64,000 nt of DNA from NCBI RefSeq assembly GCF_041886205.1, contig NZ_CP169029.1; one strand, 5' to 3'. Position 1 is the first letter of the stretch; every line of letters starts with the position of its first letter. Source of the stretch: Escherichia coli (GTDB taxonomy: Bacteria; Pseudomonadota; Gammaproteobacteria; Enterobacterales; Enterobacteriaceae). Position numbers: made by a program. Shown here piece by piece: positions 45,301 to 48,300 of this stretch.

Positions 45301-48300
45301 TTAACATCACTTCGCTCTATGTGACTCACGATCAAAGTGAAGCTTTCGCGGTGTCCGACACTGTGCTGGTGATGAACAAAGGTCACATCATGCAAATTGG
45401 CTCGCCGCAGGATCTCTATCGTCAGCCCGCCTCCCGCTTTATGGCAAGTTTTATGGGCGACGCCAACCTGTTCCCAGCGAACTTTCGCGAAGAGTATGTC
45501 GATATCTACGGTTATCGCCTGCCGCGCGCGGCGCATTTCCCGGCGCAAGGTAGCGGCACCGTCGGCGTTCGCCCGGAAGCCATCACCTTAAGCAATCACG
45601 GCGAAGAGAGTCAGCGTTGTGTTATACGCCATGTCGCCTACATGGGGCCGCAGTACGAAGTGACCGTAGAGTGGCATGGTCAGGAGATTTTATTACAAGT
45701 CAACGCCACCCGTTTACAGCCCGATATTGGTGAGCACTATTACCTTGAAATCCATCCTTACGGGATGTTTGTTTTAGCGGATGCAGCATAAACATAGCGC
45801 ATAAACGGTCCCCTCTTACCCTGAGGGGACATCATCTGCTTACATTTCAGACATAATTATTTTCTGGTCCCCTGTTTTACAGAACAACATTTGGAAACAT
45901 TCTCAGGAAAATTACCAGCAATCATTCAGAAAAGTCATGATATAAATAAATCAATGGGGTATACCAGTATCAATATCGTACTCAAACTCATCAAATAGCT
46001 GTAATCAGATTATTTCTCTCCCACATTGTTGTACAACTCAACTTTAATAAAATTATTTTTGTTATAAAAAGCAGGAATATATCATTTATCAGTCATCGTC
46101 AGATATCATTTACTTACCTGTATGATTGTTACTGTCAGGAAGAATAAGTTGCTGTGACTTAAGGCTGTCTGCAGGAACGTTCTTCTCTCCGTTAAAAACC
46201 ATAACGGGTTCATTATCTTCGTCTGTCAGCGGATTGAATGGCGGTATATTTTCAGTACGAATGCCGGTCAGCCACTGAAAAATACCTGCAAAATGACGGG
46301 CACTGATTTTTCTGCTGACGGACCGATGAGACATTATGTCACTGGCAGTAATAATCAGGGGAACGCTGTAGCCTCCTTGTATATGGCCATCATGATGAAC
46401 AGGATTAGCACTGTCGCTGACTGACAGTCCATGGTCAGAAAAGTAAAGCATGGCAAAATGACGGGAATGTCGGCGAAGGATACCATCAAGCTGCCCGAGA
46501 AAGTTATCCAGTTTACTGATGCTGGCGAGGTAACAGGCAATCTTCCGTGGGAACTGCTCCTGGTAATTATTCGGCCAGGAGTTAAGCCGGTCACACGGAT
46601 TCGGATGAGAACCCATCATGTGCAGGAAAATGACCTTCGGAGAGGATGTATCCGCCAGTGCACGTTCTGTTTCCTGTAACAACAGCATATCATCCGTTTT
46701 ACGGGAAGCAAAGCTGCCTTTCTTGAGGAAATGTAATGAACGCATCCCACTCAATTAAACACGGAGCAGTATGATGGTTAACAGGGAGAAATTGGCAGGT
46801 GTGGAGCCTCGCAGATTTCCGGCACCATAGTGCCCAATACGGGATACAAAAAGTTCCCTCAGACTGGAGACTCCTCAAATGAAATATACACTGGTTGAGG
46901 TTGACACCAAAACATATCAAGGTTGAGCGGATGTGTCAGGAGGAAGGTAAAAATTCTGAAAAATAACGGGAGGGACGTGCTACCCTGATGCCTCCGTTGT
47001 ATTCTTTTACGCTGCCGGCGCCCGTATTTTGTGCGGGTATCGAACAGGATCACCGCATGAGCCATTGCTGAGACGCTCACTTTTTTTCGCATGCATTACA
47101 GGAGTGATGGCTCAGTCGGTGATTTTGTTGAGGTGAGAGCCGATATGGGAAAACGATATAAAATAACTGCGACAATAACCAAGCCTGGTCATACACCGGC
47201 TCAGTGGCAGCGTTACCAGAACGAAAAAATGACACACGCCGAATGTGAAAAACTGTTTGCGCCCGCAAAAGAGCCCGGACGGTATATCAGTGTCCGGGTA
47301 GAGGACTTCCGGTGTGAAGAGGTGAAGGCCTGATATGAAAATAAAAAACCTCCGGTTGAGCCGGAGGTGGCAAGAATATATTCGAAGTCTGTATCTGTGT
47401 GAAGAATTTATTAATCTGTTTCTGTGGTTTAATCCACTGCTGATTTATCTAATATATGAGGTATAAAATCAACAGACAGCTTGTATTTTTGTGATCGATA
47501 TTGAAAAAAATAATGTTTTCCAGGATACATTGTTTTCAGTACCAATACCATAACGTACGAGAAAAATCAGTGACAGTCGGGCTGGAATGCCGGATAATAT
47601 TTCTGTCCGGTTTTTCGCCGGAGCATTGATGAAATCATTTCTCTTGCCATTGAGAACATTTCTCAGCCGGGCGTGAAAGCCCGGTTTTTTTGCTATTCCC
47701 GACCGTAAATGTACAGTCATGTTACTATTATCTGTAATTAGTCCGGTTTTCCTTTAACAAAAGACGGACAGCGGGTGTTCACTGCGTGTTATATCAGAAA
47801 CCTTAATAATCTGTTACCGGTTCTGAAATGGTAGTGGTACGTGACGCCAGCAATCATCCACACGGAGGCTTCCTGTAAATATAAATAATGGTTTAATACA
47901 GCAACACTGCAGATGACTTCTGAACTGAAAACGGCTACATTACACCATTGAACATAGAATGAAAAGCCAGGTACACGCTCCGTTACACTAAACTGCCCCC
48001 AAGTTATATCAATATGTTCTATTTATAAGTAGAATTTTTTATAACGCAAAACAATATGTATTGCTGACAGGCCGAAAATAACTTCTGTTTATTTGACCTT
48101 AATCAAAATGCGAGAGCAAAATTATTACAATATATATTAAATAGAAAAGAGCGAGTCAAATGTTCAGTCAGGCTGAACACATAATATTAAAACTTTCTTT
48201 TTGTCATTGGTTACTATGTGCGGACGATCTCTGTATATTGCCAGCTACTGTGGGATATCTAAAGGAAAATGCCTGATAAAATATACCGGCAACTGAACTG

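Follow-up and report, generated by a model that had tools for sequence, protein, structure and literature searches.

OpgE (YbiP), the phosphoethanolamine (PEtN) transferase for osmoregulated periplasmic glucans, has the same architecture as the yjgX family, an N-terminal multi-TM part followed by a sulfatase-fold domain, and the two have the GES, Thr, GSH and SDHG motifs in common, although they are only 31–35% identical and opgE occupies the mntR-opgE-ompX locus whereas yjgX-family genes are found in islands. Intact members of the yjgX family occur in the islands of about half of complete Escherichia coli genomes. Copies such as those of K-12 and strain 536, like the fragment described here, lie in islands beside P4-type integrases, and truncation is common among them. 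In K-12-type genomes, the copy lies at the leuX island beside IS2, matches nt 314/317–1490 of the intact gene, and carries the annotation of a phosphoethanolamine transferase with a frameshift and an incomplete N-terminus. The MG1655 locus is the pseudogene yjgX (b4575), which is 90.9% identical in DNA to the intact gene (nt 314–1490), has lost ~313 nt at its 5′ end, and has a frameshift and an internal stop. A copy in strain 536 (WP_001026224.1) belongs to the same family. The part of the literature mentioning yjgX that we surveyed held no functional study and, as far as that partial survey goes, the family is functionally uncharacterised.

The other system relevant to this locus is the insertion sequence (IS) ISEc11 (Prosseda 2006), which has a seekRNA-guided DEDD transposase. 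ISEc11, a 1443-bp member of the IS1111 family, targets GTGAAAATACTG. Its 3′ non-coding region encodes the seekRNA, its left end is taken to include one copy of a 4-bp repeat, and the left terminus in this family has been described as a 7-bp extension with a subterminal inverted repeat (sTIR) (Siddiquee et al. 2024, PMC11187229).

We analysed a 64,000-nt stretch of an E. coli genome (contig NZ_CP169029.1; hereafter the window) that carries a fragment related to both systems. The fragment at 46110–46731 is very probably the defunct 3′ part of an island gene for a yjgX-family phosphoethanolamine transferase, cut at an ISEc11-like terminus through an IS-end/deletion history, and it is an ordinary pseudogene remnant of an already known gene kind. 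The features of the locus, and the core opgE gene with which it was compared, are as follows.

30973–32556, plus strand: core opgE, intact, 527 aa, in its normal mntR-opgE-ompX setting (annotated opgE at the same position in strain 2/0)
46110–46731, minus strand: 3′ remnant of a yjgX-family PEtN transferase gene, nt 894–1515, codons 299–504 plus stop (tblastn, blastn)
46110–46754, minus strand: chimeric ORF of 214 aa (ORF calling)
46732–46754, minus strand: first 8 codons of the chimeric ORF, TTG AGT GGG ATG CGT TCA TTA CAT (sequence, junction alignments)
46729–46920, plus strand: ISEc11-like (IS1111-family) IS remnant of ~190 bp (91% identity to ISEc11 left ends)
46859–47092, minus strand: 77-aa ORF over the IS remnant and DUF1187 upstream DNA (no Pfam or tblastn transferase match)
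46921–47333, plus strand: DUF1187 module, island/ICE-type, unrelated to the transferase (DUF1187 gene 47091–47333, Pfam E=1.2e-18)

The initial annotation described the 214-aa ORF as alignable to the C-terminal sulfatase domain of OpgE and as lacking the N-terminal membrane domain, and our searches bear out both points. In BLASTP against core OpgE, ORF residues 7–188 matched OpgE residues 322–507 (35% identity, E=5e-34), and the Pfam Sulfatase profile (PF00884) matched the ORF at positions 143–293 of 301 only, that is, the C-terminal half, whereas OpgE matched the whole domain. No hydrophobic segments were found in the 214-aa ORF. A much closer relative was the intact 504-aa protein WP_024201748.1, whose residues 299–504 aligned to 46730–46113 in a single frame with 99.5% identity (tblastn against the window); the only other match of this protein in the window was the distant one to opgE. 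Compared with the intact allele of strain 6883, the remnant had 3 mismatches and 0 gaps in 622 nt, beginning at gene nt 894 (blastn), and is thus the last 206 codons of a 504-aa yjgX-family gene. Residues 1–298 of two intact homologs had no tblastn match in 45000–49200 (E<=10) or in the whole window. The sequence upstream of the fragment had been read as a gene broken across several frames, but the frameshift mapping proposed for it returned neither frameshifts nor N-terminal pieces, and 46732–47092 is made up of the IS-end remnant and DNA of the DUF1187 module. Of the two origins initially offered, a decaying gene is right insofar as the fragment is a truncated pseudogene and wrong as to frameshift decay, given 3 substitutions and no indels in 622 nt; a relic of recombination came closest, with one clean break, but the ISEc11-like terminus at that break had gone unrecognised.

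Comparison with other genomes placed the break within a widespread gene. When 45800–48400 was searched by megablast against 5426 complete E. coli genomes, the match to 45800–46731 extended in other strains into complete genes with the annotation 'phosphoethanolamine transferase'. WP_024201748.1 had a match in 2914 of the 5426 genomes, and 1451 held at least 80% of its length. A collection of 15 billion proteins contained the intact protein, on 202 contigs and in a cluster (90% identity) with 8941 members, and no copy of the exact 214-aa product. Because at least 80% of the gene is present in 1451 complete genomes and the exact product is absent from the protein collection, the fragment is a truncation and not an intact short family member, as the initial annotation had supposed.

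Descent from the yjgX family is also evident from DNA identity, which was 89.4% between the fragment and K-12 b4575 and 89–94% when the strain 536 copy was included. Unlike K-12 yjgX, the window copy has lost 893 nt and ends at an ISEc11-like terminus. Identity to the intact relative was 31.5% for OpgE (495 aa), 33% for YhbX (251 aa), 26% for EptC (306 aa), 23% for EptB (264 aa), and 21% for EptA (236 aa), and a neighbour-joining tree of the K-12 paralogs with the intact relative placed the yjgX family as sister to OpgE. The initial assignment to the EptA/OpgE superfamily therefore stands, with OpgE as the closest K-12 paralog of the fragment; the fragment itself belongs to the separate yjgX family, rather than to opgE, eptA, eptB or eptC. 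No NCBIfam equivalog or subfamily model scored above its curated cut-off, so these models supply no equivalog name: the intact relative reached at most 108 bits against a cut-off of 404 bits (CptA subfamily), and the fragment scored at most 25 bits. Membership of EptA, EptB, EptC (CptA) or MCR was rejected, with scores below the NCBIfam cut-offs.

At the break itself, gene homology ended abruptly at 46728–46731, ...CTTGAGGAAA (46731), in an alignment of the window, strain JML285, and the intact allele, with bases 46729–46731 (AAA) common to gene and IS. A sensitive search with 46732–46960 found annotated ISEc11 (IS110/IS1111-type) left ends in many genomes, with 91% identity over 188 bp. The remnant comprises the left terminus AAAT-GTA, the sTIR ATGAACGCATCCC, the 5′ non-coding stretch, and the first ~14 tnp codons. 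Six independent ISEc11 insertions all start AAAT-GTAATGAACGCATCCCAC, which is the sequence of window 46729–46750, and their left ends (the 7-bp extension AAATGTA, then ATGAACGCATCCC) are identical to that of the remnant, as expected of an IS1111-family left end; the targets interrupted by the compared copies were IS66 tnpB, an integrase gene, gspB, IS66 tnpA, and cas6e. The left terminus and sTIR are therefore those of ISEc11, with 91% identity over the first ~190 bp, but the window diverges from complete ISEc11 near 46920, after ~190 bp and ~14 tnp codons. Unlike ISEc11 proper, the remnant is a variant at 91% identity, retains ~13% of the 1443 bp, and is not a complete mobile element, as it lacks the remainder of the transposase, the seekRNA region on the 3′ side and the right end, whose motif GGGATGCGTTCAT occurred nowhere in the window.

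The gene flank reads GAGG/AAAT (a slash marks the end of the flank), and other natural ISEc11 flanks are GTGA, TTA, AAGA and CAGA, each followed by AAAT. The left half-site is near-cognate to the ISEc11 target GTGAAAATACTG, which is absent in its canonical form from both strands of the window, and the intact gene has, as its right half, AAAACGGT, a poor match to that of the ISEc11 target (AAATACTG). The remnant is 91% identical to ISEc11 and has lost its own seekRNA, so its target specificity cannot be read from it; the gene segment to compare with the seekRNA of the ISEc11-like variant is GAGGAAAACGGT.

Beyond the IS remnant, from 46933 on, ~88% DNA matches were to DUF1187 regions elsewhere, for example within an integrating conjugative element. 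The 77-aa ORF across this boundary (46859–47092) is most likely a chance ORF and not transferase-derived. An Rfam scan of 45500–49500 gave two sub-threshold matches only, which we took as chance (CpoB thermometer, 27 bits against a gathering score of 51; RAGATH-35, 24 bits against 38.9).

Motif mapping showed that the fragment retains the His of the GSH motif (fragment residue 50) and the Asp-His of SDHG (107–108). Two further residues, the Glu of the GES motif (residue 200) and a Thr (residue 238), were invariant in 7 of 7 aligned paralogs; in EptA/MCR-1 enzymes, they correspond to the metal ligand (Glu200) and the nucleophile (Thr238). Both, like all hydrophobic segments (residues 6–154), lie upstream of residue 299 and are absent from the fragment. 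The intact relative has the hydrophobic segments at residues 6–154 together with a PF08019 (EptA_B_N) match, and the fragment has neither. An intact, functional member of the yjgX family would be a ~500-aa protein with an N-terminal multi-TM domain and a complete sulfatase-fold domain, and the fragment is neither multi-TM nor complete in the sulfatase fold. Since it has no TM helices, no Glu200 and no Thr238, it cannot be catalytic, and it is, judged by its sequence, non-functional.

The gene did not contribute the first eight codons of the ORF (MSGMRSLH), which read the left subterminal inverted repeat of the IS in antisense. The open frame is accidental, in that a TTG in the antisense IS end falls in frame, and the ORF is a chance chimera. 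Read antisense and outward, an ISEc11-type left end has an in-frame TTG and ATG (TTG AGT GGG ATG), and any ISEc11-type insertion with that orientation and frame would yield a chimeric ORF into the flanking gene.

The gene/IS junction was found in one of the 5426 complete genomes, that of JML285, where the fragment is labelled in RefSeq as 'sulfatase-like hydrolase/transferase; incomplete; missing N-terminus'. The JML285 copy (L002 8316–8771, compared with window 46110–46731) has an extra internal deletion of ~165 bp, and substitutions cluster in a patch close to its 3′ end. Together, this deletion and patch suggest mosaic recombination among yjgX-family alleles after truncation.

Strain 6883 preserves what appears to be the ancestral layout, in which the intact gene faces the final gene of an AfuABC-type transporter cluster in convergent orientation and is followed by an outer-membrane-protein gene and a small hypothetical gene. 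Starting from such a layout, an ISEc11-like IS1111-family element would have come to abut the gene at codon 298/299, either by insertion at a near-cognate site (GAGG/AAAA in the gene, compared with the known GTGA/AAAT) or by an IS-end-mediated rearrangement that placed the IS there. Further deletion or recombination would then have eliminated the remaining IS sequence along with the first 893 nt of the gene and the genes next to it, and the outcome would be ~190 bp of IS left end fused to the DUF1187 module. The breakpoint, the IS terminus, the missing 5′ part and the lost catalytic residues are observed; the event order and mechanism (insertion then deletion, or a single IS-end-mediated deletion) are what we infer. 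A synthetic 200-nt query joining the IS right end to the 5′ part of the gene was searched as the reciprocal junction against the 5426 complete genomes, and no place covered both halves. As these genomes held no simple-insertion intermediate, insertion into the gene is itself a deduction.

Three other accounts of the fragment were weighed against a yjgX-family remnant cut at an IS end. The initial annotation had presented the fragment as a truncated paralog of the core opgE gene, and a decaying copy of that gene, whether a recent duplicate or a recombination relic, would be in keeping with the rank of OpgE as closest paralog in K-12, which shares 35% identity with the fragment and 31.5% (495 aa) with its full-length relative. 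The window's own core opgE is undamaged, however; DNA similarity between it and the fragment extends no further than two patches at conserved motifs (54 nt at 74%, 26 nt at 88%); and the fragment is 99.5% identical to an intact yjgX-family gene in the islands of about half of E. coli, all of which makes an opgE copy extremely improbable. An OpgE ortholog was likewise rejected (35% identity, in an island locus 14 kb from the intact true opgE), as was recent recombination with opgE, the DNA similarity being confined to motif patches. On sequence grounds, the fragment is a distant opgE paralog in the superfamily sense, from a separate family, and is not derived from the core copy. It is also highly improbable that the ORF is a genuine short stand-alone soluble protein, a C-terminal half of the sulfatase domain expressed from an IS-derived start. 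The frame is still open over 214 codons, so that translation of a fragment would be possible, and a weak sigma-70-like match lies upstream of the ORF (46939–46911, minus strand). Against expression as a protein in its own right, no Shine-Dalgarno sequence was evident on reading the sequence before the TTG start, promoter-like matches were about as many as chance would give (5, with 3.9 expected), the fragment lacks the catalytic Thr and Glu, the exact product is absent from the 15-billion-protein collection, and the one other complete genome with the junction has the further ~165-bp internal deletion. A terminator scan was likewise at chance level.

The part played by the IS can also be questioned, since an IS-independent deletion or recombination may have cut the gene, with the adjacent IS end a coincidence. 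The lack of an insertion intermediate among 5426 complete genomes, the poor right-half target match, and the second break of the IS itself at about 46920 are compatible with such a cut. Yet the gene breaks at the IS terminus to the base, as at six other sites, its flank is similar to the left half-site of ISEc11, and a random deletion end would rarely fall at an IS terminus, so that we consider an unrelated cut very unlikely. A bolder proposal is that the junction records an off-target event of a seekRNA-guided IS1111-family element, or that the IS-started chimeric ORF is expressed as a soluble half-domain protein. The off-target part of this proposal follows from a site at which only the left half agrees with the ISEc11 target (GAGG/AAAA-CGGT compared with GTGA/AAAT-ACTG), and we regard the proposal as very unlikely. 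The preferred reading thus remains a yjgX-family gene truncated at an ISEc11-like end.

The surroundings of the fragment are those of an island, in agreement with the initial annotation.

36513–37715: P4-type tyrosine integrase, at the island start, directly downstream of glnH (35568–36314)
38000–45791: LuxR-type response regulator, MASE1 histidine kinase, UhpC-like MFS protein, AfuABC-type ABC transporter
49127–51460, minus strand: IS66-family element (tnpA/tnpB/tnpC; matches ISEc8 in JML285)
52966–53700, minus strand: AraC-type regulator
55195–55917, minus strand: class B acid phosphatase
56640–59255, plus strand: second IS66-family element (tnpA/tnpB/tnpC)
59515–60696, minus strand: general porin
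62654–63043, minus strand: cytochrome b562
63082–63969, minus strand: peroxidase-family protein

No tRNA gene was found in the window and glnP was not seen downstream, so the island seems to occupy the glnH-glnP spacer. An integrase is present at the glnH site in 18 complete E. coli genomes. In UPEC strain 2/0, the island at this site carries pap genes and a truncated yjgX-family gene that is missing its C-terminus, and truncated yjgX-family copies recur in E. coli islands (the window, strain 2/0, and K-12 yjgX). Strain 6883 has the same transporter cluster as the window, followed by its intact yjgX-family gene. The RefSeq name of the AfuABC-type ATPase is 'ferric ... fbpC'. Such clusters reportedly take up sugar phosphates, according to published work on AfuABC of Citrobacter rodentium, and for this reason 'ferric' may be a misnomer. 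The cargo between 52966 and 63969 is low in GC (35–43%). In other genomes, ISEc11 is commonly inserted in IS66 tnpB.

If the off-target reading were true, it would suggest that pairing of the left half can be enough for strand exchange in vivo and that half-site events of this kind give rise to adjacent deletions in pathogenicity islands. The functional gap noted above belongs to the yjgX family and not to the window fragment. For the locus itself, the corrected label is that of a yjgX-family pseudogene remnant, cut short at an ISEc11-like end, instead of an opgE duplicate; this matters little beyond being one further case of the IS-driven erosion of E. coli genomic islands.
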